IMG/VR virus record: IMGVR_UViG_3300021426_000004
Location: 64,001-128,000 of that record
Strand: one strand, 5' to 3'
DNA: 64,000 nucleotides
Origin: a virus
Lineage: Duplodnaviria > Caudoviricetes
Position 1 is the first letter of the stretch; the number at the start of each line of letters is the position of its first letter. This document shows positions 1 through 61,555 of the stretch, one piece after another. The notes under the pieces were generated by a model that was not told the origin of the DNA, did no database searches, and was given only the letters and a program-made list of their open reading frames with translations. The translations under genes and the position numbers were made by a program.

Positions 1-3000
1 ATCTTCGCTGGCTTTACCGTATTTATCTTGATATGTTCCATCTTCTATAGATTGAATCATATCATAAGCGCCTTGAATTTTATCTATCTGAGTTATTCCA
101 TCATATCCTTGAGCATACCTTTGCATGCGAAGTGTTGCATAGCTTTCTTCGGGCGCCGTTAATGTATAGTTTTGATCTTTTGTTCTTTCTGCAATATCAG
201 AACCAACAACAGCAGCATAATCGTTGTAGAATTGTGGATTAGTTATTGGATTATATAAGGACGCTGCATTATAAATCTCGTCTCTTGTTTTATATCCAAA
301 GTCTGCATATGCAGCAGTTTGCATAGCATTATATCTGTTTATCTTTTCTTGATCTCCTGGTAAATAATCTGTACTGCCACCGTAATGGTTCATGATAGAG
401 TTATATTCATCTTGTATTGCAAGATAATCCTTTTGATTTTGAGTTAATCCATTAAACGCTTGTTGGTAAAGCTCGTTATTGCCTTTTCTTAACTCATCAA
501 TCCTGTTAGTATCACCGCTGAGAATTACTCTTTGAGCTTGTTCAATTTCATATGGAGTTTTCGAACGCTGTAAACCATAGGCAAGGTTTTCTCTGTCAAT
601 ATCTTGTGTAGTGCCAATTGGTTCAAATTCTCCAAACGCCATTCTGTCAAACCAGTTTTGAAACTCAGGTGTTGCTGCATAACGTTGTCCAGTATCTTTA
701 CTCGTCCAATATAATGCTCCTGTTGTTTCATCGTATTGATACGGTTGATAAATGGCATATTTGTTTATTTCTTCTAACGCATCTTTAACTAAAATAGGAT
801 TTGTTTTTGTTTTATATCCCATTTTTGCAGCTTCTTGTTGTGCGTAATCAACACCCATCGTTTTTGCAAGTTGGGTGAGCCGTCCAGCCGTTTGTTCTCT
901 TTGATCTTGAATTGCTCTATCTGCATTAGCTCTAGCTTCTGTCATATTTGCTTCTATACGAGCTTTACTCCATCCTGGATTCAGGCTCATTAAAGCATTC
1001 ATTTGTTCTTCCGAAGTTCCATTTTGAAGCATAGCTACTTGCTGTTCAAAATTATAATTATCAGACTCCATTTGAAGCTTAGCTTTAATCTCAAATTGTC
1101 CGCCCTTTTTAAGGTTCTCAATTAACTGAGTTGTTCCTTGAAGAACTTTATTAGCACTTTCAAGATCGTCGATTCCAGCAACAGCAATCTTAACATCAAA
1201 GTCTCTCTTAAGATTGAGTCCTTCGATATCAGTCCGCTGTGCTTCTGTCATATTTTTATATCTATCAATTTCAGCGCCATAAATACTATTAACAGCATCA
1301 TACTGACTTTTAGTCCAATTATTTGCTTGAGCATATTCAGCCAAAGACTTATAATCACTTGACATTGCTTTATCGGCAAGATCTGCGATTTCTTTCTTTG
1401 TGTATTGCGTCAATCCAGTATCTGGTTTTAATGAATTTTTGCTGATTGACTGATTGATGTATTTCTCAATCTCTTCAGAAACTTCGCCATTTTCATATGC
1501 TTTTAATATCTCATCGGTCATATCACCGAATATATTTTGCATATTTTTATATACTACTTCAAATACATCATCATTCTTAAATTCAGAGGCCCATGCATTA
1601 TCAGCTTCCATTGCGCTCATTGCTGTTTTTACAATATCTACAGGTTGTGAATATCCGATCTTTGCTTTGCTTGCAATATCTTGAAACTGTTCCCAAGTGA
1701 TTGAAGGATTTTCGCCTGTTGCCATCACATAAGCAGATAACAGTTCAGGAGAATTCGCAAGAACATTAGCAAACTCTTGAGCTCTGTCATTTTCTTCGTA
1801 GGATTTCTTAAGTTCTGACATATTTGTTGCTGTAGACACAGCAGCAATTAAATCTTCTCTTTGTTGATTGATTGGTCTTTTCTTTCTTAAATCAATTAAT
1901 GAAGCATCAACAGCGTTATCAACAGATGTTCTGTATTGAGCTATCTCTTCAGGAGTATATCCTTCAAGAAGATAATTTGAACCTTTTTTCTTCAGGTTGT
2001 CAATTTCAGCTGAAATTGCGGAAACATTCAATAAGTCACCAATGAAATACTTATCTTTTATATCTCCGTTTTCATCAGTTATCATCTTGAAAAATTTATC
2101 AGTAAAAATATTTTGTATAGTACTTTCACTAACAGTGTCTGTTGCCAAATCGCTTAAATTCCACTGTCCAATCAACTCTTTGATATAATCATTATTAAAG
2201 GTACGTCTCTGAGCATCATATGTTTCTTCATTGCTAAAATCTAATTTAAAACGATTTTTCCAAAAACTATCGTAAGCAGCTGCAATGATTCTTTGATCTG
2301 AAGCTTGTAAATCTTTAACTTTCTTAGGATCTGTACCAAGCAAAGATAACATTGTTTCATCGTTTTTGTAATATGATCCAATGATTTTTTTAGCAACGTC
2401 ACTCTTATTAAAAAGATTAACAAAACCAGTGGCTTTATCAAGCGTTGGATTATTACTTTCACTAAAAATATTTTGTGATGTACTAAAGTTATCAATTATT
2501 TCATGAGATTGTAAATCGCCATTTTCATCATAATATGTTGTGTCTGCACCAGCTTCGGATAAATATTTTATTGCTTCTCGATCTAAATGACCATAATCAA
2601 ATCCACCAATAACAGTTTCATCAAACTTTTTATTGTATTCTTGTTGTCCATAAACTTCTTGATGTTGTTTGGTCATTTCATCTGTTTCTTTGTGTATTCT
2701 TGCTGCTTCGGCATCGGCAGCGTCAGATGCCTTAGTCAAAGCGCTAGAAAACTCAGAAAGATTCGTTGTTGCATTTTTAACTTCTGGTGCAATGGTAGGG
2801 AAGGCATTCCCTAAATCATTCATAGCAGAAATTAACTTTGCTCTTGCATCTTTTTCTGATATTGTATTTCCAGATTCGGTTGCTTTTAAATATTCATCAT
2901 ATTTCTTTTGAGCTTCACTTATAATATCTCTTCTATTATTTAAAGAAGACATACTCTTCGAATAATAATTATTTACATTAGCAAGATCAGCAGCGCTTTC

Positions 3001-6000
3001 ACGGGCGAATCTTTCTTCATCTGTTTCGACGGAGCCGCCGCCGAAAATTGTTTTTAATACGCCTGTAGTACCAATACCTGCAACTAATCCTACAATAGCA
3101 GATAATCCAGCAAGGATTGGCATTTTCAACTTTAATGCAAGAATTGCTCCACCTATTGCTGTTAACGTGCCGACAATAACGCCACCTGCTTGTTCAAAGG
3201 CATCCGATCCGGCCGCAAATTGAAGGAATCCTGAAACAATATCAAGAGCTCCTGTAACAACACCGCTATTGACAAAACTTTCAACAACCGCATCCCACGA
3301 ACTTTTAAGCGTATCTAAAGAAGCGGCGAGACTTTGCATAGCAATTTCATATTTTGATTGTGTTATTCCACCGCTATTTGAAGCAAGGTCAAGATATTCT
3401 TTTATCCTTTTGCCGCCGTCTTCGGACATACCTTCCATTAATGTTGAGAAGATATTTGTCTGTCTAGTTCCAGCTAAAGCGTTTGTAACAACGGATTTCT
3501 GAACATCACTCAACTTTTCCCATACACCAGCAAGATCACTTAAAACTTCGTATGCCGTGCGCATCTTTTGTCCGTTCTTATCTGAAAACAGATCTATACC
3601 AACAGACTTTAATGCTGCTTCAGCATCTGAAGCAGTTGTTTTTTCACCGTTTTGATCTGCCGTCCAGCCCGAAAGACTAATTCTTCTCATACGAGTAAAG
3701 ACAGTCTGCAAAGCCGTACCAACCTGAGTGCCGCTCAACTGAGTATCGGAAGTACCAACAGTGAGCAATGCAGTTAATTCTGCATAAGATACACCTGCAA
3801 CTTTAGCAGATGCAGCAGCCTTTTGCATACCTTTACCAATTTCGGCGGCGGTAGTTGCAGCGCTATCACCAAGCGCGACAAGTGCGTCCATTGCCTGTTC
3901 TGCAGAAGGCACCAGGTCATTCTGAAGAGCAGTTGTAATAATCTTTGTAGCTTCAGTAACGTTTAGTTTTGTAACTGTAGCAAATTTAATGATAGATTCT
4001 GTTCGATTTGAAACTTCTTGATCGCTTAATCCTTGACGATATAAAGCAGCTTCAGTGTTAGCAACATTGGAAACAGAAGTACGAAGTCCAATAGCTTTAT
4101 TAATTGTATTAGAACGAACAGAAGCCATATCACTATCTGACTTAAGCGTAATGGCCTGTATTTCGTTCATAGAAGCATCAAATTCTTTTATAAAACGCTT
4201 GGTTTCTTGGAGAGCTTTTTGAAAAAGTTGACGACCAAGACGAGCTGCAACTCTTTCAATTGTTTGACCAAACACAGCTGCAGTTGCACTGGCTTTGCCA
4301 AACGGACTTTGAAGCTGAGAAAGATCCTGACTTGCTCTTTGCGCTTCTTCTCTAAGTTTCGCGAGGTTAGTCTGAGCTTCAGCGTAACCATTGTCGCCTT
4401 CTTTTAATCCAGCAGTTTCTTTTTCGTAAGCTCGAAGCTTAGATTGCGCTTCAACGTTCCTATTTTCAGCTTGAGTAAGAGCGTTATTATAGATGCTGTA
4501 AGCACGAGTAGCAATATTTCTAGAAGTGCCAAAGCGATTCATACGCATCATATTGCCACGTCGAGTAATCTGATTTACTGCATAGCCTTGTTGTAATTGA
4601 CGAAGATCGTTTTGTGATTCAAAATCTTTTTTATACTGTTCTGTTACTTTTTCTACTTCACTGTTATACTCATCTTCAACTTGTTTTTTGTAATCTGATA
4701 AACGAGCATGAGGATTTGTCAGACGATCTTCTTTAAATTGTTGCGCGGCTTTTCTTGCATTTAACTCTTTTTGCGCATTTAATACATTAATACGCTCTTG
4801 TAAACCCTTGTTATATATTTCATCTTTCGATGCTTGAGTTATTCCGAGTTTTAATTTTGCAGCATCGATTTGATTTTGATCAAACTGATTTAAGGATTCG
4901 TTGCTTAACAAATGTTCTGCCTGAGAAAGCCGAGATGTCAATTCTGTTCCGCTTATAAGTCCTCGTTCAAACAAATCTTTAGCGTCGACTTTAGCATTGT
5001 TAATCTGTTCAATAAAAGAAAGCCTATTTTTTGCTAAGTCCATTGGCTTTGCGGCTTCTTTATCAACCATCGCTGTTAAAGAATTGAATGTATTTCCGAG
5101 AAGTTCTGTTGCAGATCCTTGTAATTGTTTAATATACTGTTGAACAAATGGTTCGTTTAGTTTCTCTTGTTGAGTAGCTGCATCCAAATTTTTTGTCATT
5201 GCTTCAACTTCTGAAACTTTTAAATCCATTTCCTCTTCTTGTTTTTTTCTAAGATCTTGCGTAGCTTGCAATCTGGATGTTGTTTTTTCTCTTGCAGTTT
5301 CAAGTCTTTCAGCAGCAAGTTTATCGTTTCCTTCTTTTATAGCACTGCTAATAGTAAAGAATTCATCGCTAGAAGCTAATTCTGGATGTCTGTTGAGAAG
5401 TTTTGTTCTTTCTCTTTTAGCAATTCCTTTTTCTTTTGTAGTCAAACCCGAGGAATTAATAGCATCAGTATATCCTTGAATACGATCTAATATATCTTTT
5501 TCTTCTTTGAGTTCTCGTTCTTGACTTTTTAAACTGTTTATGCGACCAGATGCATCTTCTATGTCTTGGTTTCGTTCGTCTATTCTTTCTGATAAATAAT
5601 CTTTATCTCTTCGAATATTATTAAATCTTTCCTGTACTTTATCATAAGATTCAACTAAAGCTCGACCGGCTTTTGTTCCGCTGTTTCCTGCAATGGACCT
5701 AAATATATCTTCTCCAAAGTTTTCAGTGTCCAGCACAACTGCTTGTGAAAGGCCAAGATCCAAATTGCTCATTGCTGCATCATATCGAGCTTGTAAGTCC
5801 TTTGCCTGAGCTGTATTACCAGCAATTTCCTCTTGTTTGGATTGCTCAAGAAGTAAGTTTGCTTGATTATACTTTGATCTCCATATTACATCGTCTGGAG
5901 TCCTTTTATCTCTTTCTCTTGTTCTTTTGTTAACAAAACTTTGAATTTCTTCATCTGCTTCAATTGCTTCATTATATCTGTCGTGCAACCATAAAGCATC

Positions 6001-9000
6001 TGTTATACTTCCTGTATTAAATTTTCCGCTTTTAGAACTTCCTTTTCTGTTAACAATTTGATCTGCAACACTTTCCCTAATATCTCCAAACATGTTTTCA
6101 CGGAGAAATTTAGCTGCATCAAGCACGTCTCCGATAGATGTATTTTCTTTTGCAAGTTGTTGAATTCTATTAATCGACCTAGATACATTATCATCACTTA
6201 AACTTAAATCAGCATCAGAAAAAATCATTTTTCGAATTCGATTCTGGTATGGTTCTATAATGCCAACTTCACCAATGTTTACTCCATTTTTTTGAAGTTG
6301 ACTATCATAAATAGCCTGCTGTACTCTCCATTTTTTCCAATCGTCGTCTGATGGTTTCCAATAATTCTTAATATCTGCCATCACTTCGCGTTGGTCATCT
6401 TTTCTGCTTCTGAATCTTAAGTCGTATGAACCAGTCATACCTACGTCTTCATCTGTTGTTAATTTTTTCCCTTTACCTGTTATTATCATATTTCCAGCAG
6501 CAGTTTTTGGACCTTTTCCTACGTCGCTTGATTCTATGCCAACGACTTGCCAATCGCTTTCTGGATAAATGCTTAATAATCCTTCTCCACCTAAAAATTG
6601 ACGAAGAGCGTAATATCTGTCGTTTAAGTTTGTTCCACTTGTTTTTAACGTTTGGCGTTCAGCATCTGTTAATCCTCTGCTTCCTGCAGGAAGTTTAAAT
6701 CCTTTTCCTTGCTTTTTTAAACCAAGATACTCGTCAAAAACATCAAGAGCTTCTTTTTGTGCTGCTTTCAGCTGATCTTCTGACAATGGTGCTGAAGCAT
6801 TCATTCGCAGTTGCATAAAGTGCTCAATTGCTGTATGTGCAGCTTGCCCAATTTCTGTACTAGCAAGCGTTGAATTATTTTCACGTCCAGTAATTAAGTC
6901 TTCCATAAAGTTTGCTGGATTATATGCAAATTTCGACAATGAGCTAAAAGAAAGTCTTGGCATATTGTCAATCATTCTTTTTTTCTCATCTACAGTCAAC
7001 AAATTAAATGACTCCAAAAGTCTAGCAAGTTTAGTATTCTGAGTGGGTTCACTCATTTCTTCAAACGCTTTAGGAGTTGTTTTTGCAGATAATAACTTTG
7101 TAAAGTCTAAACCTCCGACAACGTTTGGCAACTTCATTGCTTCTAATGTTGTGAAAATCGAATCATTTACGCCTTCATCGTGCATATGCGATGCAGACAT
7201 TGCCATACCAGACAATGCGTTTTGAATAACCTTGCCGCCTAATCTATTAACTACTCTTTCGGCTATTGCTCTGTTTGATCCTTTTTCGTTAAATGCTTTA
7301 CCTTGTCTGTCTCTTTCGTTTTTCACTAACGCTGCTTGTTCATCGATTGCAGCAGAGCGCAATTCTCCTAATTTAGCAATTGTTTCTTCGTCTATGGCAA
7401 GATAATCTGCATTTAAATATCCCATCCAAGTATCACGTAACGCAGATTGCATACGACCTAAAGCAGTTGATTCATCCTTTTTCCCTAACACAGAATCAAA
7501 AATATAATTCCAGTCATAATTTTTATTAATATCTACGCCTCTTTGTTTAGCAAAATACCGAGAAAGCATCATAGAACGTACATTGCTAGACATTGTATTA
7601 AACGGAAGATTGGTTGACCAGAATTTAGCGCCAAGCAAACCATCGCTGCCTTTAGCGCTTTCGATTAAATTTGGAATGGATACGTTTCCATATTTATCTC
7701 TGTTTTTATCGACAATATGGAAAAACTCCGTAAATGCTCTGTATTTTGATAACACTTCTAATTGTTCCGGAGTTGTATCCATTTCTATACCAGTCTTATT
7801 TCTAATAGAATTAACACTGTATTGTGATTCTGCAGCAGACATAGCTTTTAAAACAGTTGAATCCCAAGGAACTTGCATTGCGTTACGAATAGTTGCGTCA
7901 GGACCACCCATAAAATACCCATTCTGCATTGCTGGAACGAGTACTTTCATAACATCTATACCTTTATTTAAATCAATATCATCTGCACCAAAGACGTTAT
8001 GTTTAAATTCTTCTTTTATTTTATCTGCTTCAGCTTGAGAAAGGCCTCTTTCGTCTATTTTCTTTATACCTAAATCATAAGCTTTTTTCAAAATCTCTGC
8101 CGCTGCAACTTTTTCGCCTTTTTTATTTTTACCTGTATATGCAAGACCAATCAAATCCATGACGTCTCCATCGAAATCAGCGTCTTGCAGAAGCTGCATA
8201 ACTGGAGATGAAGGTGAAATATAAAAAGCATCCGGATCAAAACCAGAATCTGAAAGATACTTTTGAATTGCTTTTTCACGTTGAGAGTTTCCGACAGATA
8301 TATTTTTAACTTCTCTTGCAGAACGTGTCGTTGCAGGATACCGACTAATTCCTACAACTGAAGCCATGAGCTTCTGAAAAGCAATTTCGTCATCATCCAT
8401 AGTCAGCAAACCAAGTGTTTTTCTTTGGTCTTCAGACATTTGAGAGTACAGTGTATCGTAATATGATTTTGTTTCTCCGTCTTTAATTATGCCTGTGCCG
8501 CTTTCGTTTATGTTTTTTAATCCAGATATAATTGCATTAAAGAAATATGGTTGAGCCATTGCCCTGGAAGTTTCTAAGGATCTAGGTAAAATTGTATCTC
8601 CTTGCGAAATTCTCGTAAGCATTCCAAGACGGAATCCTTGTATTTCGTCCTGAATGCGCTTATCTCCCATGACAGCACCGTTTGTTGCTAATATTAAATC
8701 TCTCATTTCTGAGTTACCAGCAAAGACGGTATCAAGAGCTCCCTGCATTGTTCCAACACGGGCATACTCGTCTAAAAATGCTCGTGTTGTCATTTCGACA
8801 AATTCCGGAGAATTACCAAGAATCTGCGATGCTTGTCTGGACATCCAGTGGATTCCGCCTTGAGCATCTTTCATTGTTTTGTTTGCAAAAATTTTTCCAC
8901 CTGAACGTTCAATTTCTTCTGCAATATTCTTTTTAATTTCTTCTGTAGGAAGTAGTTTTCCATTATCATCTTTATATTTGATTCCGGCGTTTTTTACATC

Positions 9001-11028
9001 GGACATACTAAGTAAAAGATCCAAATCGTCTGTTATTTCTTCTACTCTTCCGTCAGGACCGATTGTTTTTACGGAGCCACCAAAGGGAGCCAGAAAACTT
9101 GATAAATTCAATGGGCTTAAGGCTGTTTTAACACCTGGCATGCGTGCTTGAAATCCTCTTGGAACATACTTGCTGTTTATGTAGCTTGTTCCGTTCATAC
9201 CAGACCCGCCAATTTCTGAAGGTGTTTGTCCAAATTTTGCGGCATCTTCAAGATCAAACAGTCCAATTTTTAAGTTCTTTGGCAGTTTGGTGCCAAATAA
9301 ATCTTGAATGCTTTCGCCAGATGTTGCAGGTTTACTCGCGTATTCTAGCGTTTTTGCTGCTTTATTAAATGCTTCGTCTCCGACGAAGTGCAAATTTTTT
9401 AGTCCGCCCCAAAAAACACTTTTATCTCTTTCTCCTGTTTCTTGATTTATAACAGGCGCAATGGCATTATATAAAGGATCAGCAACAAACTCCAAACCTA
9501 ATCCTTTATGTGCTCGCGAAAACGTATAATGTGTTTGTTTTCCGTGAGGAGACTTTGTAAGTCCTTCGTCAATGTATTTCGCATATTGTTGCATTAAATC
9601 GTTTCTTGTTTTTTCATCAAGACCTGGATCTGCAAGTCGCGGATCAACTTGAAGATAAACAATATCATCAATTGCATCGTTATTATTCGGCATCTTACCA
9701 GTTTTACGATGTCTAAATATGTTTTCCAGATGCAAACTATGGTCAATAGACATATAACGATCATCTCTGTCTGATTGACCGTAAAACTTTGTTCTATCTC
9801 TATTTAAATCAACACCGGCTTGTAAATCAGATAAAGTATAATTTGCAACTTCGTATCGTTTAATGTTTGGAGAAAACGGTATTTTTGCCTCTGTGTCACT
9901 AAATTGATTTAATGGAATATTTGATACTTTTGCTCCACGATTAGGCGTGAGCCAACTGAAATTATCGGATAGAATGCGTGCTGCATTCATATTACCTAAA
10001 AAAGGTTTATTGTTTTTTCTAGCGATTCTATCCCAAAATTGTTTATCATTAACATCTGTAATGCCATACATCGGCATACCTTTTGCAGAAGAAATGATCG
10101 CATCATATAACTCGCTGGAAAGGTTGTTGATTAACCCCCGGGTTAGTCCATTCCTCATTCCAATCGTTCCGTTTAATCGAACAGCTACTCCCGATTTTTC
10201 AGCAGCTGACAAAAAGTAAGGATTGGTTTTAAGTAAATTTTCAACTATAGCCTTTTCTTTGTTTGTTAAAGCTTCGTTGCTGTTTGGCTCGGATATAGCG
10301 CCTTTTGCCGCGTGAAAATTTTGAAATTGAGATGGAAGCATATTTGCAAAGCTATCAAAAAGATGTGCTTGTTTTTCAGATCCTCTTGATATTTGCGACA
10401 TAAAACCTTTACGTTGTGTTTGGTCTGTTCCTTGGAACATTAATATTTCTGACAAAGCATCTGCTGCTTTTGAAGTTCTTGACATTCCAAGTTGTTCAAA
10501 AATACCATTATCAAAAAGTTTATTTTTTATTCCTGCTTTAAAAGAAGCTGTATCCATCAGTGTTGTAGCAGATCTTTGAAAATCAGCAACTTGTGTTACC
10601 AATGCACGCATATTTGGCATTAAATTGGTTGCAGTTTTCAATAAACTCTGGCCTGCTTTTTTCCCGCCAACAGAAGACATTAAAGTAGATGAAGCAGTAA
10701 CAAATGAACGCATTTCATTTATTGTTGCTTCAATTCCTCTGCGAAGCATTTCTCTTTCAGCGTACAAGTCACTTAATTGCTTTTCTGAAAAAATAGGTGA
10801 ACTATCTATCTCTTGGTTTATCTTATTAATTCTGGAAAAAGAATTAACAATTGAGTCCTTCCCTTGAGAAAAAAACTCATCAGAACCGGAAATCATTTCT
10901 CCAGCCGAATTTTGTATTTGTTTAATATTATCAAGTACGCCCTTTGAAGCATCTTTTATACTTGAAAACTCTTTAATTGCGCTTGAACCATCAACATCAA
11001 GAGCAATACGAATAGTTGTATCAACCAT
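1..11028 (-). CDS. Giant tape-measure protein (3' end outside window, >3676 aa) with N-terminal two-barrel RNA polymerase domain and PD-(D/E)xK nuclease domain
   Basis: ATG at 11028 with AGAGGTG RBS. Absent from the ORF track, consistent with no stop before the window edge; frame checked by hand at several points. TP901-type TMP core near 3300-4190 (EFDASMNEIQAIT...MDALVALGDSAATTAAEIGKGMQKAAASAKVAGVSYAELTALL). RNAP motifs PRGFQARMPGVK (about 9127-9162), SRYP (about 8335-8346) and DADFDGD (8164-8184). Nuclease motifs LSFSSLSKF, GQAAHTAIE, GSYD...DIK, QQAIY (about 6300-6960). Confidence 0.9.
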   Translation of the reverse strand, partial: MVDTTIRIALDVDGSSAIKEFSSIKDASKGVLDNIKQIQNSAGEMISGSDEFFSQGKDSIVNSFSRINKINQEIDSSPIFSEKQLSDLYAEREMLRRGIEATINEMRSFVTASSTLMSSVGGKKAGQSLLKTATNLMPNMRALVTQVADFQRSATTLMDTASFKAGIKNKLFDNGIFEQLGMSRTSKAADALSEILMFQGTDQTQRKGFMSQISRGSEKQAHLFDSFANMLPSQFQNFHAAKGAISEPNSNEALTNKEKAIVENLLKTNPYFLSAAEKSGVAVRLNGTIGMRNGLTRGLINNLSSELYDAIISSAKGMPMYGITDVNDKQFWDRIARKNNKPFLGNMNAARILSDNFSWLTPNRGAKVSNIPLNQFSDTEAKIPFSPNIKRYEVANYTLSDLQAGVDLNRDRTKFYGQSDRDDRYMSIDHSLHLENIFRHRKTGKMPNNNDAIDDIVYLQVDPRLADPGLDEKTRNDLMQQYAKYIDEGLTKSPHGKQTHYTFSRAHKGLGLEFVADPLYNAIAPVINQETGERDKSVFWGGLKNLHFVGDEAFNKAAKTLEYASKPATSGESIQDLFGTKLPKNLKIGLFDLEDAAKFGQTPSEIGGSGMNGTSYINSKYVPRGFQARMPGVKTALSPLNLSSFLAPFGGSVKTIGPDGRVEEITDDLDLLLSMSDVKNAGIKYKDDNGKLLPTEEIKKNIAEEIERSGGKIFANKTMKDAQGGIHWMSRQASQILGNSPEFVEMTTRAFLDEYARVGTMQGALDTVFAGNSEMRDLILATNGAVMGDKRIQDEIQGFRLGMLTRISQGDTILPRSLETSRAMAQPYFFNAIISGLKNINESGTGIIKDGETKSYYDTLYSQMSEDQRKTLGLLTMDDDEIAFQKLMASVVGISRYPATTRSAREVKNISVGNSQREKAIQKYLSDSGFDPDAFYISPSSPVMQLLQDADFDGDVMDLIGLAYTGKNKKGEKVAAAEILKKAYDLGIKKIDERGLSQAEADKIKEEFKHNVFGADDIDLNKGIDVMKVLVPAMQNGYFMGGPDATIRNAMQVPWDSTVLKAMSAAESQYSVNSIRNKTGIEMDTTPEQLEVLSKYRAFTEFFHIVDKNRDKYGNVSIPNLIESAKGSDGLLGAKFWSTNLPFNTMSSNVRSMMLSRYFAKQRGVDINKNYDWNYIFDSVLGKKDESTALGRMQSALRDTWMGYLNADYLAIDEETIAKLGELRSAAIDEQAALVKNERDRQGKAFNEKGSNRAIAERVVNRLGGKVIQNALSGMAMSASHMHDEGVNDSIFTTLEAMKLPNVVGGLDFTKLLSAKTTPKAFEEMSEPTQNTKLARLLESFNLLTVDEKKRMIDNMPRLSFSSLSKFAYNPANFMEDLITGRENNSTLASTEIGQAAHTAIEHFMQLRMNASAPLSEDQLKAAQKEALDVFDEYLGLKKQGKGFKLPAGSRGLTDAERQTLKTSGTNLNDRYYALRQFLGGEGLLSIYPESDWQVVGIESSDVGKGPKTAAGNMIITGKGKKLTTDEDVGMTGSYDLRFRSRKDDQREVMADIKNYWKPSDDDWKKWRVQQAIYDSQLQKNGVNIGEVGIIEPYQNRIRKMIFSDADLSLSDDNVSRSINRIQQLAKENTSIGDVLDAAKFLRENMFGDIRESVADQIVNRKGSSKSGKFNTGSITDALWLHDRYNEAIEADEEIQSFVNKRTRERDKRTPDDVIWRSKYNQANLLLEQSKQEEIAGNTAQAKDLQARYDAAMSNLDLGLSQAVVLDTENFGEDIFRSIAGNSGTKAGRALVESYDKVQERFNNIRRDKDYLSERIDERNQDIEDASGRINSLKSQERELKEEKDILDRIQGYTDAINSSGLTTKEKGIAKRERTKLLNRHPELASSDEFFTISSAIKEGNDKLAAERLETAREKTTSRLQATQDLRKKQEEEMDLKVSEVEAMTKNLDAATQQEKLNEPFVQQYIKQLQGSATELLGNTFNSLTAMVDKEAAKPMDLAKNRLSFIEQINNAKVDAKDLFERGLISGTELTSRLSQAEHLLSNESLNQFDQNQIDAAKLKLGITQASKDEIYNKGLQERINVLNAQKELNARKAAQQFKEDRLTNPHARLSDYKKQVEDEYNSEVEKVTEQYKKDFESQNDLRQLQQGYAVNQITRRGNMMRMNRFGTSRNIATRAYSIYNNALTQAENRNVEAQSKLRAYEKETAGLKEGDNGYAEAQTNLAKLREEAQRASQDLSQLQSPFGKASATAAVFGQTIERVAARLGRQLFQKALQETKRFIKEFDASMNEIQAITLKSDSDMASVRSNTINKAIGLRTSVSNVANTEAALYRQGLSDQEVSNRTESIIKFATVTKLNVTEATKIITTALQNDLVPSAEQAMDALVALGDSAATTAAEIGKGMQKAAASAKVAGVSYAELTALLTVGTSDTQLSGTQVGTALQTVFTRMRRISLSGWTADQNGEKTTASDAEAALKSVGIDLFSDKNGQKMRTAYEVLSDLAGVWEKLSDVQKSVVTNALAGTRQTNIFSTLMEGMSEDGGKRIKEYLDLASNSGGITQSKYEIAMQSLAASLDTLKSSWDAVVESFVNSGVVTGALDIVSGFLQFAAGSDAFEQAGGVIVGTLTAIGGAILALKLKMPILAGLSAIVGLVAGIGTTGVLKTIFGGGSVETDEERFARESAADLANVNNYYSKSMSSLNNRRDIISEAQKKYDEYLKATESGNTISEKDARAKLISAMNDLGNAFPTIAPEVKNATTNLSEFSSALTKASDAADAEAARIHKETDEMTKQHQEVYGQQEYNKKFDETVIGGFDYGHLDREAIKYLSEAGADTTYYDENGDLQSHEIIDNFSTSQNIFSESNNPTLDKATGFVNLFNKSDVAKKIIGSYYKNDETMLSLLGTDPKKVKDLQASDQRIIAAAYDSFWKNRFKLDFSNEETYDAQRRTFNNDYIKELIGQWNLSDLATDTVSESTIQNIFTDKFFKMITDENGDIKDKYFIGDLLNVSAISAEIDNLKKKGSNYLLEGYTPEEIAQYRTSVDNAVDASLIDLRKKRPINQQREDLIAAVSTATNMSELKKSYEENDRAQEFANVLANSPELLSAYVMATGENPSITWEQFQDIASKAKIGYSQPVDIVKTAMSAMEADNAWASEFKNDDVFEVVYKNMQNIFGDMTDEILKAYENGEVSEEIEKYINQSISKNSLKPDTGLTQYTKKEIADLADKAMSSDYKSLAEYAQANNWTKSQYDAVNSIYGAEIDRYKNMTEAQRTDIEGLNLKRDFDVKIAVAGIDDLESANKVLQGTTQLIENLKKGGQFEIKAKLQMESDNYNFEQQVAMLQNGTSEEQMNALMSLNPGWSKARIEANMTEARANADRAIQDQREQTAGRLTQLAKTMGVDYAQQEAAKMGYKTKTNPILVKDALEEINKYAIYQPYQYDETTGALYWTSKDTGQRYAATPEFQNWFDRMAFGEFEPIGTTQDIDRENLAYGLQRSKTPYEIEQAQRVILSGDTNRIDELRKGNNELYQQAFNGLTQNQKDYLAIQDEYNSIMNHYGGSTDYLPGDQEKINRYNAMQTAAYADFGYKTRDEIYNAASLYNPITNPQFYNDYAAVVGSDIAERTKDQNYTLTAPEESYATLRMQRYAQGYDGITQIDKIQGAYDMIQSIEDGTYQDKYGKASED

Positions 11029-11321
11029 AATAACACCTCTTCACAAAATAAAATGTATATGTTAACTTTCTTAGAAAGGAGATTTTACACATAAATAACA
11101 AAGGTATGACTGTTGCTCAAAGAAAACAATTGCATATAATTGATGGTATAGAAGATATACCTTATAAAAAAATGTTTAAGAAAAGATAATTATTGTTATA
11201 GAAAGTATTCAAAGTGTAATCCTGTTGTTCTGTTATCAACAAGATTGTTATAGCAATAATAAAAGTTTGATTCTGGATATATTTAAAGATATTATTATAT
11301 GTATATATTAAATAAAAAAAT

Positions 11322-11352
11322 AGGGGAGTACCAAAATAAGGTACTCCCCTTA
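11322..11352. terminator. Intrinsic terminator hairpin
   Basis: AGGGGAGTACC-aaaataa-GGTACTCCCCT inverted repeat, preceded on the plus strand by an A-tract (U-tract on the minus strand). Confidence 0.7.
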
Positions 11353-13547: not shown

Positions 13548-15308
13548 TTACTTCTTGAAGTAAGCGGTGCTGTACGCACCCTCGTCGTTACGCTTGGCGT
13601 CCAGAGCCGTTAATTCGAACTGGAACGTTGCAGCACTCTTATACGATGTGTCCATACCAGGAATCGTAGTAATACGAGCACGGAACACTTTGACCACATA
13701 GTAGCCAACAATAGCGCTTTCGGTGCAGTCATCGCCAGAGCCGTAGACCGGCCAAATAGCAGAACACTCACCGATAGCGGATTCCTTATTGGTGACGACG
13801 GCTTCATACGCTTCCTGCGTATAAGCATACACCACATCCACAAAATCAATATCTTCATCAGCAGAGAAAGTAATTTCCTTGCCGTTGATCAGATAATGAC
13901 CAGTGGTAACAGTACCGCTCTGAGTCGTAATAGGCTCCATGCCATCAATAAAGATACTACCTTCGATAGGAACCTGCAGCAGTTCAATCTTATGATTTGC
14001 ATCGGGCGTATGACGCTCAGTTGTGTCGATCTGATAGTTGCTGTTCTTTTTATACTGCGTCTTATTCGCCATAGCAAACAGATCAGCGTCGAACTGTCCA
14101 CATGTAAAATTCATCGTGAACGTAGAGTTGCCAGGAATAACAGCAACAGGGAACAGGGACCAACCAGCATTCATTTGGTCTTTGCTTTTTGTTCAGTGTA
14201 GTTCGCTAAGCTACACCCGCTTTATTCAAGCTGCTTTATGTTTCCATAAAGATCAGATCATATCTTACGCATATTCTGCGTCTCTCCATTTCAGCCTGCT
14301 TAGGCTTACGTCTTTCGACTGATCGTTAGAGTTTACACACGTTTAAAATGATATTTTTTTGCTCGAATATTGTTTTTTATTGATTGATACACAGATCCTC
14401 TGGGAAGATTCATTTCTTTTTCTGCGGCTAGCTGAGAATCATAAATACATCCAGTTTCTATACATTGAACTTTGGTTGATTTATGATTGTTTGCGCCCAT
14501 CATACTTGGACGTTTATTGTGCCGACATGCATCTAAAGCAGCTAAGGAGTTCGGATTTTTTCCAGCTCGTATATTTCCTTGACGTATTTTTTCTTTTGTT
14601 TTATCTGACAAATGTTTTCCTTTACGAGAAGCAACGCTTGCCTCGATAGCTTTTTCAGGACGTTTATTCCAAAAAGGATTGAGATTTCCTTTTAAGCCCC
14701 TATTGTTATATCCGCCTTCGGCAAAATTATACCCATAGTCTCTGTTTGTTGTTTGAAGCTTTTTAATTAACATTTTTTCTGTATTAGAAGCTTCGTCTTT
14801 AGTTAAATTCGATGCAAAAATTTCATGATCAAAATTATCCCAACCATATTTTTCAATCGCACTATTGAAATGCCAATTATAATTATATCCTTTTCCATTT
14901 TTCCATCTATTGTTAGGATTTGTTTTTTTAGACATTCCAACATATATTTTTCCATTAATCTTGTTTATATGTATATAAACATAATATGGTCCATTTTCTA
15001 TAATCATTTATTACATCCTTTCGTGTGTTTTACTACGGTAGGTTGTCTTTCTCTCCTTTACGGTTATTTCCGAATGTCTTCAAATGTTTGATTAAATAAT
15101 ATTTTAAAAAAGGAGAGGGAAGAGTTTCCCCGTTTAGAAGAGTTTAACGACACCAACGCTGGAATTTAATGTCGATTGTTTCAATGTTTGCGCTAACAGT
15201 AGCGGCCGTCAGCTCAGTAAAGGCATAAGCATGCCCATCGCACCGACGGAACACTACCTTCGGCACGTCAGCCACATAGCCCTTAAGCGCAGCATTATAG
15301 GTTGCCAT
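13548..15308 (-). CDS. Major tail (tube) protein, split by a group I intron: exon 1 15308-15168, exon 2 14171-13548, about 254 aa
   Basis: Removing the intron joins ...ETIDI to NAGWSLFPVAV... in frame. Lies between neck genes and tail chaperones and shows codon bias typical of highly expressed genes. Confidence 0.8.
14333..15007 (-). CDS. GIY-YIG homing endonuclease (intron-encoded, NUMOD-type C-terminus)
   Basis: YVYIHINKINGKIYVGMS...RW motif, EKMLI catalytic Glu region, GYN, and NUMOD3-like GKHLSDKTKEKIR. Confidence 0.9.
   Translation of the reverse strand: MIIENGPYYVYIHINKINGKIYVGMSKKTNPNNRWKNGKGYNYNWHFNSAIEKYGWDNFDHEIFASNLTKDEASNTEKMLIKKLQTTNRDYGYNFAEGGYNNRGLKGNLNPFWNKRPEKAIEASVASRKGKHLSDKTKEKIRQGNIRAGKNPNSLAALDACRHNKRPSMMGANNHKSTKVQCIETGCIYDSQLAAEKEMNLPRGSVYQSIKNNIRAKKYHFKRV
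15051..15078 (-). promoter_or_regulatory. Repeated motif, class III (GACATTCG-N7-CCGTAAAGGAGA), upstream of the intron endonuclease
   Basis: Minus strand GACATTCGGAAATAACCGTAAAGGAGAG; four related copies elsewhere in the window. Confidence 0.6.
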
Positions 15309-26303: not shown

Positions 26304-26330
26304 TCTCCCTTACGGTCTTTTTCGAAAGAC
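26304..26330 (-). promoter_or_regulatory. Repeated motif, class III, at the head of the morphogenesis operon
   Basis: Minus strand GTCTTTCGAAAAAGACCGTAAGGGAGA matches the other four copies. Confidence 0.6.
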
Positions 26331-27942: not shown

Positions 27943-28418
27943 GATGACGAGCAACAACAAAGATCCTCCGGCTTATCTTGGCGGGCTACACCAGAGGCGC
28001 TTAACAGTACAGGTCTGCTAGATCAATAAACAGATCTGATGAAGCTGTTAAGTTGGGTGCAAGTGCCAAACGGGCTCAGAGGAGCTCAGGCGAAACCCTG
28101 TGGCATTCTTCGGAATGGGACGTCTTTACAGGGGGTGCAGAAGCGGCTGTTACCTGACTAAAGGCTGTTAACCGCTACCGGCAACTCCGCCTGGAGAAGC
28201 CAATGGGCCAACATGGAAATGTGCTTATGACGTACATGGGGGTGTTGGTGTGCAAACCAGGACATTGAAAAAAGCACGGAAAGGAGACGTGATGTAAATT
28301 GCGTGTTTTTATAGAGCAGATATAATGTCTGCTCTTTTTTTTTATTTTACGGCAGTTCAAAGAGGCTGCACCGAGGTCCCAACTCGGTAACAGTTAACAC
28401 CACAAGCATCGGAAGGAG

Positions 28419-29714: not shown

Positions 29715-31517
29715 ATGAATACTATCTTCTGGTTCAATCCTTACAAGCAGACTGTGCGTATTCCCGATGCGAAGATCACCGTCCCTGGTATCAAAACCTT
29801 GGAAGACGCAAAACGGTTTGTCGAAACCGAAGACTTCGACAATTTCCGGTTTATTGTGAAATCCAAAACCGGAAAACCCTATCCATTCAAAGATGTCGCA
29901 GAAGCAAAAGACTTTGCTCAGAAAAAGAGCACAAAGTCGGTTTGCTACACCGTGTGGAACGATGGAGATCCTATTACCTCTTTCGTGAATAAGAAAGAGT
30001 TGACAAAGTGGAATACTGTATTTATCAAACTCTATGATGATAAACCCGATAGGAATAAATGGTATTGCAGTACTTCAAAGGGTCAGTTTGCAAAAACAAC
30101 GTGGTCTTATGGAGCAAAGATTGATGTAGCACCTGGTAAAGTGCGTTTACAGCGCATTTATATCGAATGGATTAAATGTGTAAATGGTCATCTGGCTACA
30201 AAGTTCCACAATATTTCGATCACATTCCACAAAGATGGTTCTGTCTATCTTTATAACGGAAGAATCCAACATGTCAGCGCAAATGAATTAGTAACATCGT
30301 ATGACGATGACGTCTTAAGCGCTTTGAAGGATGAGTTAACGAAACTTAGGCCTGAATTAAAGAAAATGATCAGTGAAGCAGGTACTTATAGTCTGTGTGG
30401 TGTTTTCAGCAGACCAACAGCTTATTATAAGTTCGATACGTTCCACCATACCGCAACAAAACGGTATTGTCCGTTTTACTTTGGTAATTACCCAAAAGAG
30501 ATTGTGGACGAATCAAAGTTGATCGACGTGATTGCAAAGAGAATGCACATACCAACAAGCAAAACGTTAAGAAAATTGTATAACGAAAATATCCACAACA
30601 TGGAAGTAGTGCATTTTCTGAAATTCATCGGTTTCAAGGATGTGAATTCATATCAGAAGCTGACTGGGTTTGGTGTACATTTCAGCCGTCGTAATCCTGC
30701 TGAATTCGCAGCTTTCTTTAAGAAGTTCATCAAACTTCGCGGAGAAAATAACGTTGTTAGAATGACAAGTGATACCGACTTTAATCTTATTGATGATGTC
30801 GCTATGTCATACAACGAGATCGTCGAAGAGGCGTCTGAATTCGTGCTTAATAAATGCCGCAACTTCGAGGAAATCCACGAGACCTTTAATAGATCTTGCG
30901 CGACTCGGGAAAACCTCGTAGATGAAAAGATTCCGTACTCGAAGACAGAGAAAAAGAAGTACGAATTCATCAGCGAAAACGGAATTCGGTTCGAACTTGC
31001 GGAAGGAAGAAAAGATCTTGCCATCATCGGTGCTAACATGGGTATCTGTGTTGGTGGTTATGGCGATAAAGCAGTTAACAAACATTGCGTTATCGTAAAA
31101 ATGATGGATGGTGATGATTACGCTGCCTGCATCGAAGTTCAAAAACAGGGCGTTGTTCAACTCAAAGCAAAATACAATAACCCCGTTCGTAGTAAATATC
31201 GTGCCGATATTGATGCATGGCTGGAAAACGGTGAGATTAAATGCGAGTGCTACGATTATAATTGCATTGGAGAAGACTGGAATAGCACTTGCCGTTATGA
31301 CCAAATTCGTCCTGATGATTTCGAGCCTACTGATCATGAACCGATTCTGCAGATTGTAAAAGCCAAACATGAGAAATACGTTCACAATAACAAGTGGTTC
31401 ACTAAAGACGAAGCGAATCGATTGGAACGTATCCAAGAACTTGCCACCTCAGCAGAACCGCACAGATTCGAAGATTTTGAATTCGAAGCTATTGAAACGG
31501 ATGAACTTCCGTTTTAA
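29715..31517 (+). CDS. PcfJ-like domain protein
   Basis: C-terminal DLAIIGANMGICVGGY...ACIEV...VVQLKAKYN matches the PcfJ-type pattern (xGxxMxHCVxxY...Q). Confidence 0.7.
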   Translation: MNTIFWFNPYKQTVRIPDAKITVPGIKTLEDAKRFVETEDFDNFRFIVKSKTGKPYPFKDVAEAKDFAQKKSTKSVCYTVWNDGDPITSFVNKKELTKWNTVFIKLYDDKPDRNKWYCSTSKGQFAKTTWSYGAKIDVAPGKVRLQRIYIEWIKCVNGHLATKFHNISITFHKDGSVYLYNGRIQHVSANELVTSYDDDVLSALKDELTKLRPELKKMISEAGTYSLCGVFSRPTAYYKFDTFHHTATKRYCPFYFGNYPKEIVDESKLIDVIAKRMHIPTSKTLRKLYNENIHNMEVVHFLKFIGFKDVNSYQKLTGFGVHFSRRNPAEFAAFFKKFIKLRGENNVVRMTSDTDFNLIDDVAMSYNEIVEEASEFVLNKCRNFEEIHETFNRSCATRENLVDEKIPYSKTEKKKYEFISENGIRFELAEGRKDLAIIGANMGICVGGYGDKAVNKHCVIVKMMDGDDYAACIEVQKQGVVQLKAKYNNPVRSKYRADIDAWLENGEIKCECYDYNCIGEDWNSTCRYDQIRPDDFEPTDHEPILQIVKAKHEKYVHNNKWFTKDEANRLERIQELATSAEPHRFEDFEFEAIETDELPF

Positions 31518-32895: not shown

Positions 32896-35616
32896 ATGTC
32901 TAAACTCGAAGGAATCAAAATCTTGAACGACGGAAACCCTATGGACGTTAACAGCGAAGAAGGGTTCCTCTTCACTGTCAGTCCTTCTACCGCCAAGAAA
33001 GGCACTGGTTATCGCACCGATAAGCCGGTGTCATTGACCGAATACGAACTCCGGATGCCTGGAGTAGTAGTCTGTCAGAACAGAGGAATGATCTTCTCCA
33101 GCTGCCGTCCGATTAATGGAGAATATGTCATTCCGACTCTGGACAATCTTAATCTCATCATCGTCGATGAGAAGTCCAGGAAACTGGTTCCCGTTGACGA
33201 CCCTGAAAACAAGATTGTGTGGAAAGGCAACGGACCGCATGAAGTAAAGGATGTCGCCGCCGATGGTGCCGGTGTTCATTACTTCAAGACTAAAGAAGGT
33301 ATAATGGCTTTCTGGCTTTGGTTAAAGATCGCACTGTTTGGCTATGGCATCAAGGGAATGCTTATGCCTGGTCTTGCAACAGATATCGGCAAGAAAGTCA
33401 TTGACCATTGGGGCGTTGAGCGCACCATCACACTTGGCAACACTTTGTTGCTTAATTCCAGCCTCGTCAAGGGACTCGGTGCCTACAACAGCCTGGAAGA
33501 GCTGATTGCCCATTCTAAAGAGTGGGGACTGACCACTATGATGAAGCAGTGGCAGTCTGGCGACCACGAGGTTGCCAACAAGAGAATTCTTGGAATTCAG
33601 ATCAATAGCACAAACTTTGCGCTGGAACGGCCTGAGATTCGTGAACTGCTGAAGCCTGAAGCTCGTAAGATTTGGTCTATGCAGTTTCCTGAAATTGCGT
33701 GGCGGAAGATGGCAAGTGTCAATACAAGCCGTGGTCGTGCGTTTGCAGCTCGTCCGAGTCTGATGTACAAAGACTTGGTCATGCGGCAGATCGACAATAA
33801 ATGCGGCAATGACTTCCTTCGCAACGCACAGGGTAAAACGATGGTAGCAGCAAGCTACCTGAAGATGTATCCTGACCGTCTTGCGTACAGTCTTTGCTAT
33901 GTCGATGGTATGGACATCAACGAAGCGGCAAAGAAAGCGGCTTCCTGCGGACTTCATGGTGAAATCCGTGTCAGCCCTTCGTATGCTGGCCGCAAGGTCA
34001 AGCACAACGAAGACGGAACGGTGACGATTACTTTCAAGAAGGAGACGCACCTTGATAGCAAAGGTCGTTACGTTGAAGTAGCACTTGTTAGATATCCGCA
34101 TGGCGCTCCTTCTGAAACTATCGTCGTTAAAGCGTATCTTGACGATACGGTTCCGGCCGATGTAATCGTGTTTCCGTTCCCGGTCGCCAATGACGACGGA
34201 ACAATTCCGGTAAAGTGCTTGTATGCGATGCGCCTTCAGGGTGCAGATTACGATGGTGATGCTGTAACGGCATTTACCGAGAAGATCTGGCTGGAAGCAC
34301 AGAAGCGGAATGCTGGAAAATCGTACATGATTATCCCGGTGAATACAGAAGGAACAGAAAAGGACAAGACTCTGGTGACAGATGAATCCTTCGAGTCTTT
34401 CTGTCAGACTAAGATCGAATCTCTCACCAATCAGGTTGGTCTGATTGCAACAAGCCTGAAGTATTACCTCTCTCAGGCTGCTGATAGTATCAGGATGGGC
34501 TCAAATCCTGAAATCATCGAGCAGATGATTGTAGATCACGCTTGTGCCATGGGAGATGACATTGATGAATTCAAGCATGGCAAGGCCAATAATGAAATTG
34601 CCTTGTTTACGATTCATCATGAAGGCGAAAAGGACGAAACTCTGTTCAGCCCGTACTTCAACAGATACTCTTGCAAATTCCGGTCCAAAGAAGATATGGA
34701 TAAGACAATCTTCACAAAGACCGGTAAAGAGAAGAAAGCCGGAAATGGCGTACTCGACATGTTTGCCACGGAGTGGGAGAAGCTTATGGCTGAAGCCGGA
34801 CTTCAGATCATCTCTGATACGACTGAAGTTTCTGATGGAAGCAAGAGGTTCTACTTCACAGTTCATCCTGTGAAATGGAGCAGCAAATACGTAGACCTGT
34901 ATACCTCTGATAAAGGTATTGGTCAGATCGCAGTTGAACTTCCGGAAGAACTGGAAAAGGCGTACAAGCTGAAAGCCAATACGAAGCTGACAGCGAAAGA
35001 TCTGTTCAGAGTGTTGTATCGTGATCACTCTGCGTCTTGCAAAGATCTTGTTGGTTGCAACGATGACAGAGACATGCGGTTCAAGGCTCTGGCGAAGATT
35101 GATGCCAGATATGCGCTGGCAAAGGTAGCTATCGTCGCCTGGACTCAGCGGATGTGGAAGCAGAAGTCCAGTGAAGATCTCACCGCCGAAGAAGCGATGG
35201 TGATGTTCACTACACTGATGACTCAGCATACTGAAAGATCAAGATCCACGATTGACTCCGAAACCAGGTATGGAGTCTTCGAGCGGGAAGACGGCACTGA
35301 GTACAAAATCGACGTATTCAGCGCTCAGAGGAAATACAACTATTTCCTTGATGTCTGCGGCGATGGACTGCTTCTGGCGAAGACTGAAGAGCCAGATTTC
35401 CCTGATGTATCAGATAAGATCATCGAAGCGGCTGAAGCGAAAGCTCCTGACCTGGAACTGGCTAAAGCGAAAGCTACCAAAGAGCTGGATCTGATCGGTG
35501 AACTGGTGACCATGCTGAACGATAACGGCATTGAGAGTGTTGTCGAGGAAATCAACAATGAGCTCGTGCCGCTTCGGGATGATGAAGACGAAGACTACAT
35601 CCCCGAAGAGATCTGA
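32896..35616 (+). CDS. Divergent single-chain two-barrel (DxDGD) RNA polymerase, 906 aa
   Basis: ADGAG and GIKGML (first barrel), ALVRYPH (RxP motif), and RLQGADYDGD at 34240-34260 (catalytic loop). Confidence 0.8.
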   Translation: MSKLEGIKILNDGNPMDVNSEEGFLFTVSPSTAKKGTGYRTDKPVSLTEYELRMPGVVVCQNRGMIFSSCRPINGEYVIPTLDNLNLIIVDEKSRKLVPVDDPENKIVWKGNGPHEVKDVAADGAGVHYFKTKEGIMAFWLWLKIALFGYGIKGMLMPGLATDIGKKVIDHWGVERTITLGNTLLLNSSLVKGLGAYNSLEELIAHSKEWGLTTMMKQWQSGDHEVANKRILGIQINSTNFALERPEIRELLKPEARKIWSMQFPEIAWRKMASVNTSRGRAFAARPSLMYKDLVMRQIDNKCGNDFLRNAQGKTMVAASYLKMYPDRLAYSLCYVDGMDINEAAKKAASCGLHGEIRVSPSYAGRKVKHNEDGTVTITFKKETHLDSKGRYVEVALVRYPHGAPSETIVVKAYLDDTVPADVIVFPFPVANDDGTIPVKCLYAMRLQGADYDGDAVTAFTEKIWLEAQKRNAGKSYMIIPVNTEGTEKDKTLVTDESFESFCQTKIESLTNQVGLIATSLKYYLSQAADSIRMGSNPEIIEQMIVDHACAMGDDIDEFKHGKANNEIALFTIHHEGEKDETLFSPYFNRYSCKFRSKEDMDKTIFTKTGKEKKAGNGVLDMFATEWEKLMAEAGLQIISDTTEVSDGSKRFYFTVHPVKWSSKYVDLYTSDKGIGQIAVELPEELEKAYKLKANTKLTAKDLFRVLYRDHSASCKDLVGCNDDRDMRFKALAKIDARYALAKVAIVAWTQRMWKQKSSEDLTAEEAMVMFTTLMTQHTERSRSTIDSETRYGVFEREDGTEYKIDVFSAQRKYNYFLDVCGDGLLLAKTEEPDFPDVSDKIIEAAEAKAPDLELAKAKATKELDLIGELVTMLNDNGIESVVEEINNELVPLRDDEDEDYIPEEI

Positions 35617-40972: not shown

Positions 40973-41020
40973 TTCGGTACCTAACTTTGGCGACATTCGA
41001 GAATGACCGTAAAGGAGAGG
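40973..41020 (+). promoter_or_regulatory. Repeated motif, class III (extended form)
   Basis: TTCGGTACCTAACTTTGGCGACATTCGAGAATGACCGTAAAGGAGAGG. Confidence 0.6.
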
Positions 41021-48245: not shown

Positions 48246-48290
48246 GGTACCGAACTTTGGGGACATTCGAAAAATACCGTAAAGGAGGAG
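48246..48290 (+). promoter_or_regulatory. Repeated motif, class III (extended form)
   Basis: GGTACCGAACTTTGGGGACATTCGAAAAATACCGTAAAGGAGGAG; overlaps the RBS of the next gene. Confidence 0.6.
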
Positions 48291-61507: not shown

Positions 61508-61555
61508 TTCGGTACCGAACTATGGAGACATTCGAAAATTGACGTAAAGGAGAGA
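61508..61555 (+). promoter_or_regulatory. Repeated motif, class III (extended form)
   Basis: TTCGGTACCGAACTATGGAGACATTCGAAAATTGACGTAAAGGAGAG. Confidence 0.6.

Follow-up and report, generated by a model that had tools for sequence, protein, structure and literature searches.

A predicted two-barrel RNA polymerase in frame with the tail tape measure protein of an SPbeta-like phage

To our knowledge, virion RNA polymerases were known before 2024 only as capsid cargo. Two such enzymes, gp66 of phi14:2 (6VR4) and the virion RNA polymerase of N4, form part of a very large virion polypeptide that is ejected into the host, but they are packaged in the capsid and form no part of the tail ruler; the N4 enzyme has a T7-like fold and is unrelated to the two-barrel class. 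In P23-45, an 84-kb Thermus phage, the tape measure protein gp96 (5,002 amino acids, aa) was then shown to include an active polymerase at residues about 327-1124, with the motif DFDGD at 779-783 and crystal structures available as 8H2M and 8H2N; this polymerase is present in virions and transcribes the pre-early genes, among them the gene of a second, non-virion polymerase (Chaban et al. 2024, PMC10770324). In that work the fusion of tape measure and polymerase was reported only in relatives of P23-45 and was called previously unsuspected, and YonO, phi14:2 gp66, gp64 and gp96 were placed in one structural class of DNA-dependent transcriptases (PMC10770324). YonO of SPbeta is described, in the work of Forrest et al. 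(2017) as cited in PMC10770324, as an experimentally characterised single-subunit DNA-dependent RNA polymerase. Here we describe a giant tape measure gene of comparable layout in the virus record IMGVR_UViG_3300021426_000004 (G000; 148,117 bp, terminal repeats, rated complete). The stretch analysed, called the window below, comprises 64,000 nucleotides (nt) of this record (G000:C1:64001-128000), and positions refer to it unless a G000 coordinate is given.

The minus-strand frame that opens at ATG 11028 is free of stops up to the window edge (3,676 codons, aa 1-3676) and extends in the whole genome over G000:C1:59855-75028 (75028 -> 59855), giving a protein of 5,057 aa, 1,381 of which fall outside the window. 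A near-identical protein of 5,041 aa (P0002) is held in a public protein collection, and the start codon is backed by a GAAGAGGTG ribosome-binding site and by an M-x-D N-terminus conserved in the homologues. The gene and its parts are as follows.

1-11028, minus strand: tape measure gene, in-window part, continuing 4,146 nt past the window start to G000:C1:59855
10279-11028, minus strand: N-terminal helical region, aa 1-250, found before the polymerase in every homologue
7129-10278, minus strand: predicted two-barrel RNA polymerase domain, aa 251-1300 (AlphaFold2 model, Foldseek)
7531-10080, minus strand: core aligning to QDE-1 and RDR2, aa about 317-1166 (structural alignment)
9127-9153, minus strand: basic motif FQARMPGVK of the first (beta-like) barrel, aa 626-634, aligning with the R/K pair of YonO
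8329-8355, minus strand: R-x-P motif (VGISRYPAT) at the entry of the second (beta-prime-like) barrel, aa 892-900, aligning with LRSPH of YonO
8164-8178, minus strand: metal-binding loop DFDGD, aa 951-955, aligning with DVDGD of YonO
6286-6957, minus strand: PD-(D/E)XK (RecB/Cas4-like) nuclease, aa 1358-1581 (PF12705, ESM Atlas)
3469-4089, minus strand: tape-measure core PF10145 (PhageMin_Tail), aa 2314-2520 (E 1e-29, 104 bits)
3043-3189, minus strand: hydrophobic segment directly after the core, aa 2614-2662 (Kyte-Doolittle)
11322-11350, minus strand: strong terminator-like hairpin (11-bp stem, then a T run) after the upstream gene

The original prediction, made from the sequence of the window, held that polymerase motifs and a tape-measure core share this frame, and translation bears this out, with neither stop nor frameshift between ATG 11028 and the core. 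Each of its motifs occurs once; VPRGFQARMPGVKTAL (aa 622-637) and LQDADFDGDV (aa 947-956) lie where it had put them, VGISRYPAT had been given as aa 891-899 and is shifted by one residue, and the core it expected at aa about 2280-2575 coincides with the PF10145 match. Within the region it singled out (6200-11028) it recognised the polymerase, but missed both the nuclease encoded inside these coordinates and the part of the protein that lies beyond the window.

The open reading frame (ORF) encodes the tape measure of the tail in a siphophage that is SPbeta-like, complete at 148 kb and low in guanine-cytosine (GC) content: eight PHROG tape-measure families match it from aa 1897 onward, and the long helical body and C-terminal motif common to the homologues are present. 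Directly downstream lie the Dit gene (PF05709) and then that of a 2,014-aa Tal-like protein (PF06605 and the YomG N-terminal domain, YomG_N), and upstream, on the same strand, genes for the head-tail adaptor, virion structural proteins, portal and terminase; no family model identified the tail tube gene or the chaperone pair. The segment aa 2614-2662 is the sole stretch in the 5,057 aa exceeding a Kyte-Doolittle value of 1.6 in a 19-residue window and is probably membrane-inserting. The order of domains is a helical N-terminus of about 250 residues, for which Pfam returns weak helical-repeat matches only, the polymerase (aa about 300-1250), the nuclease (aa about 1358-1581), a long helical spacer and the ruler, the latter consisting of the PF10145 core, the hydrophobic segment and about 2,400 further residues. 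In the homologues the polymerase match always begins near residue 250-270.

The catalytic motifs are maintained over 32 homologues of 21-66% identity. D951, D953, G954 and D955 are invariant or nearly so, 29 of the 30 homologues that extend over the loop having the pattern D-x-D-G-D (the remaining one reads DFDSD), R896 and P898 are nearly invariant, and Q627, R629 and K634 do not vary in either of two alignments, A1 and A4. Conserved to this extent, and lying inside a confidently predicted two-barrel fold, the motifs exceed chance. In the three closest homologues, conservation is highest in the polymerase (51-64% identity, vs 23-36% in spacer and ruler core). Comparison of profiles, obtained independently of the structure model, matched A4 (clean, 10 sequences) to an alignment of four YonO members over 380 columns (E 2.4e-5), and the basic pair, R-x-P and DxDGD all fall in register.

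An AlphaFold2 model of aa 251-1300, built from an alignment of 27 relatives, reached a mean predicted local distance difference test (pLDDT) of 87.8 and a predicted template modelling score (pTM) of 0.85. When it was compared with the PDB by Foldseek, all 22 matches at E <= 0.001 were single-chain two-barrel polymerases, including QDE-1 (E 2.6e-10), RDR2 and P74-26 gp62 (1.2e-4), and phi14:2 gp66, of the same two-barrel class, matched at 4.6e-3; in BFVD, the matches were phage proteins annotated as RNA-dependent RNA polymerase (6.9e-15), fragments from crAss-like phages and P23-45 gp64. Structural Z values of the model were 17.6 for QDE-1, 14.5 for gp62 and 10.4 for gp96. The predicted fold has two double-psi beta-barrels, the beta-like one followed by the beta-prime-like one, sharing one active site, and the DFDGD strand leads into a 28-residue helix (model residues 773-800) and more helices, in the part where two-barrel polymerases have their bridge helix and trigger loop, the alignment with QDE-1 extending to model residue 916. 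As modelled, this is an in-frame single-chain two-barrel RNA polymerase of the QDE-1/RDR/YonO structural class, situated upstream of a genuine tape-measure core. The confident model, the Foldseek matches and the YonO profile alignment thus speak for the two-barrel polymerase that the original prediction had read from the motifs. Its view of a tape-measure fusion as an unusual, unknown architecture was out of date, since Chaban et al. 2024 (PMC10770324) had shown the P23-45 case. The layout has a precedent, and our contribution is a further family, new and unannotated, that widens the reach of a mechanism hitherto known in one group of phages only.

The likeness to gp96 is one of layout. In gp96 (P23-45; also in P74-26, G20c and TSP4) as in the window protein, the polymerase stands N-terminal to the ruler in one polypeptide, but the structural match of our model to gp96 is weaker than those to QDE-1, RDR2 and gp62. 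The ruler described here is of the PF10145 type and comes from an SPbeta-like phage, not a Thermus phage; compared with gp96, the window protein adds the PD-(D/E)XK nuclease, and a metallopeptidase domain was not detected in it. With YonO, the domain shares the structural class, the R/K, R-x-P and DxDGD motifs in register and the phage lineage, yet YonO, at about 840 aa, is free-standing and outside the virion, and the tape-measure domain forms a separate family. QDE-1 (2J7N) and RDR2 (7ROZ), to which the domain is 10-12% identical, are free-standing enzymes of eukaryotic RNA interference that use RNA or single-stranded DNA (ssDNA) templates and have no virion role.

Sequence searches place the domain apart from described polymerases. 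HMMER links it neither to YonO nor to PF05183; BLASTP and single-sequence hhalign against the 906-aa and 939-aa polymerases of the same phage recovered short motifs only, at no significance; and a profile search of the PDB with the polymerase family returned nothing but coiled-coil noise from the N-terminal helices. No match to aa 301-1300 was found by tblastn in 50,697 GenBank phage records, SPbeta-like phages among them, and megablast against GenBank phages likewise gave nothing. The tape-measure polymerase is a distinct, unannotated family in Bacillota-type phages that also encode YonO.

Its members can nevertheless be found in number. An exhaustive HMMER search of 1.84 billion protein cluster representatives yielded 64 relatives of the polymerase domain, and nearly all full-length ones are giants of 3.7-6.5 thousand aa with the domain at residues about 250-1300. 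A pattern scan of viral contigs derived from the single protein found nothing; the subsequent alignment-based scan gave 12 IMG/VR loci, and at all 12 the frame stays open without interruption over 4,230-4,701 codons, starting about 260 residues ahead of the polymerase match and lasting until the fetched DNA ends. Judged from these sequences, the fusion of polymerase and ruler is the rule among relatives and is kept in every long homologue. Two candidates for a stand-alone polymerase were rejected: in P0023 the frame changes within a segment whose homologous counterpart in the window protein is unbroken, so that the interruption resembles a frameshift more than a natural split, and in P0037 an overlapping ORF follows and runs off its 7.2-kb contig. 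In the remaining short relatives the matches end at or near the protein end.

P0037, a distant relative (L020:697-6153; ENA ERZ920173 scaffold_13250), matches its database protein only when TAG is read as glutamine, which suggests that a recoded stop codon is in use in at least one phage of the wider family. In several distant relatives (P0010, P0012, P0018, P0019) the ruler core is closer to that of the window protein than the polymerase is (46-66% vs 25-37% identity; in P0010, 66% vs 37%). Together with a nuclease that is present or absent by subclade, the sequences suggest that the giant protein is a mosaic in which modules are exchanged within the gene.

The nuclease itself is assigned from profile and motif set. 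On the isolated fragment PF12705 scores 24.4 bits against a curated cut-off of 22, and the characteristic residues are in place: GQAAHTAIEHF (1394-1404; the G-x3-H-x3-E helix), D1536, D1552-I-K1554 and QQAIY (1570-1574; Q-x3-Y). These motifs are conserved in the closer subclade only, the more distant family members having no such domain. In the ESM Atlas the segment falls among viral PF12705 clusters (score 0.95), with PF12705 carried by 27 of the 30 matches; an AlphaFold2 model of the region built from 4 sequences (pLDDT 48.9) was too poor for a fold search. By profile and motifs, aa 1358-1581 is a PD-(D/E)XK nuclease.

We consider it fairly probable that the protein is a tail tape measure with an N-terminal polymerase and nuclease, which would be built into the tail, expelled at infection and used to transcribe the first phage genes without the host polymerase. 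The genomes themselves display the single frame, the order of domains, the conserved catalytic residues, the fusion in relatives and the position of the gene, and modelling adds the fold; for tail assembly, expulsion, injection and early transcription we argue by analogy with P23-45 gp96. The N-terminus of a tape measure is nearest the DNA end of the tail. Once the protein had been assembled into the tail and expelled on infection, the hydrophobic segment might help to form a conduit or envelope channel, and the N-terminal polymerase might reach the cytoplasm with the leading DNA and there transcribe the first genes independently of the host enzyme; later genes would be handed to the YonO orthologue and a third YonO-like enzyme of the phage. 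Speculatively, the adjacent nuclease could process the entering DNA end and so provide this sigma-less polymerase with a template.

Several observations weigh against this reading and should be kept in view. The polymerase region is without a match in Pfam (window protein and nine relatives), PHROGs, NCBIfam and the PDB sequences, and neither sequence nor profile similarity connects it with gp96 (hhalign to the single gp96 sequence, E 0.27, to be read in the knowledge that single-sequence hhalign is equally weak for the YonO of the phage itself). About 180 well-predicted residues separate the two barrel motifs, whereas gp96 has a disordered connector of 67 residues and a flat shape, so that the modelled polymerase is probably not the flat, clamp-less form proposed for passage through the tail. 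A folded domain of 115 kDa cannot fit the lumen of the tail tube, and the polymerase would for this reason need storage at the head-tail junction or in an unfolded or extended state. The best structural matches, QDE-1 and RDR2, are RNA- or ssDNA-dependent, which casts doubt on the template that the present enzyme would prefer. Finally, the terminator-like hairpin, an AT-rich untranslated gap of about 290 nt (11029-11321) and the GAAGAGGTG ribosome-binding site lead up to the start codon; with hairpin and gap ahead of it, the tape measure gene is not regulated simply as a member of the tail operon. Hairpin and gap may mean a lower dose of the giant protein or a promoter of its own.

One explanation that we regard as unlikely but worth serious attention is that the polymerase is active without being an injected early transcriptase, either because it is cleaved off before tail assembly and acts in the producing cell, or because it works in a primase-like manner or on RNA or ssDNA as QDE-1 does, and not as a transcriptase specific for promoters. 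QDE-1 and RDR2 are indeed the best structural matches, the adjacent RecB/Cas4-like nuclease would suit the making of ssDNA templates, and YonO and a third YonO-like enzyme are already at hand for transcription. Tape measure proteins are, moreover, proteolytically processed in some phages. An internal start or a conserved split at a domain boundary was, however, not seen in this family, the split relative that was examined breaks inside the conserved polymerase region in a frameshift-like manner, and the fusion persists in all long homologues; the other members of the structural class, YonO, phi14:2 gp66, gp64 and gp96, are DNA-dependent transcriptases (PMC10770324). Were the region instead a catalytically dead relic that now only lengthens the ruler or helps in assembly, its invisibility to every curated family model would be less surprising, but both the metal-binding loop and the basic pair persist in about 30 lineages, at identities as low as 21%, and close relatives conserve the region better than they do the ruler core; we give the relic hypothesis little credence.

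Even less can be said for an assembly or gene-calling artefact that joined a polymerase gene to a tape measure gene. A few database relatives are in fact shorter (769-1,818 aa), one of them being followed by an overlapping ORF in another frame, but a continuous frame is shared by 12 independent viral contigs from several metagenomes and by about 30 giant database proteins, and the split at L021 falls where the window protein, homologous there, reads on without a break; such an origin is extremely improbable. A bolder version of the injection hypothesis can also be formulated, in which the fusion arose separately in SPbeta-like phages of Bacillota, unrelated to that of Thermus phages, polymerase and RecB-like nuclease are injected together, the nuclease resects the genome end to yield a single-stranded template, and transcription passes from the tail-borne enzyme to the 906-aa paralogue and then to YonO; taken as a whole, this scheme is rather doubtful. 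Should the simpler proposal of a tail-delivered early polymerase be true, ruler-borne polymerases would be a recurrent strategy and not an oddity of Thermus phages, as they also occur in low-GC, SPbeta-like phages of 108-151 kb, a very different setting. The SPbeta/YonO system would gain a relative with a possibly complete host-independent transcription programme, and the mechanical question of how an enzyme of about 115 kDa whose inter-barrel region is of full size passes through a tail tube would be sharpened.

The genome around the tape measure gene holds further polymerases and several elements of interest, listed here by window position.

62307-64000, continuing to G000:C1:129126 (L002:307-3126), plus strand: YonO orthologue, 939 aa (PF05183, E 1.5e-12; phrog_8308, 7e-170)
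32896-35616, plus strand: 906-aa protein with RYPH...GADYDGD (weak PF05183 match, 18.7 bits, E 7.7e-4)
29715-31517, plus strand: PcfJ-like protein, 600 aa
60175-61323, plus strand: reverse transcriptase, 382 aa (PF00078, E 1.8e-19)
14333-15007, minus strand: GIY-YIG homing endonuclease (PF01541; phrog_314, 3e-27), an insertion into the group of head and tail genes that lies upstream of the tape measure gene
15053-15076 and 26305-26328, minus strand: copies of CATTCGAAAA-N4-CGTAAAGGAG
28263-28286, 40994-41017, 48264-48287 and 61529-61552, plus strand: copies of the same element
G000 about 59780 and about 142100, outside the window: further copies of the same element

The YonO orthologue shares 32.5% identity with yonO of SPBc2 across 91% of its length, and its DVDGD motif is at aa 562-566. 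Judged from its motifs, the 906-aa protein probably represents a third two-barrel polymerase, a very divergent one; it escapes the YonO profile in this genome, although that profile detects the second YonO-like gene of the relatives at E 1e-8 to 1e-69. Five related viral genomes with a ruler-borne polymerase were checked (108-151 kb, four of them rated at least 90% complete), and since each of the five encodes a full YonO orthologue besides a second YonO-like gene of greater divergence, the multi-polymerase set is a trait of the lineage. The window phage is a distant relative of SPbeta. We infer a Bacillota host only from the YonO relatives, the low GC content and ribosome sites of the AAGGAG type, ribosome-binding sites having made up most of what exact and one-mismatch k-mer searches of upstream regions yielded. 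The phage further encodes a PolIII-alpha-like polymerase with PHP, nucleoside triphosphatase and finger domains, as in SPbeta YorL, at L002:12068-15238, and a Toprim-DnaB primase-helicase fusion at L002:5138-6973. Between the reverse transcriptase and the YonO gene lie about 980 nt without a convincing ORF.

The element CATTCGAAAA-N4-CGTAAAGGAG emerged from an all-against-all search of intergenic regions, with 6 matches in the window against none expected in shuffles. It could be a phage-specific promoter or leader, not assignable to any one polymerase. Each copy ends in the ribosome-binding site of the downstream gene, and copies stand before the first gene of the structural operon and before the Dit gene just after the tape measure.

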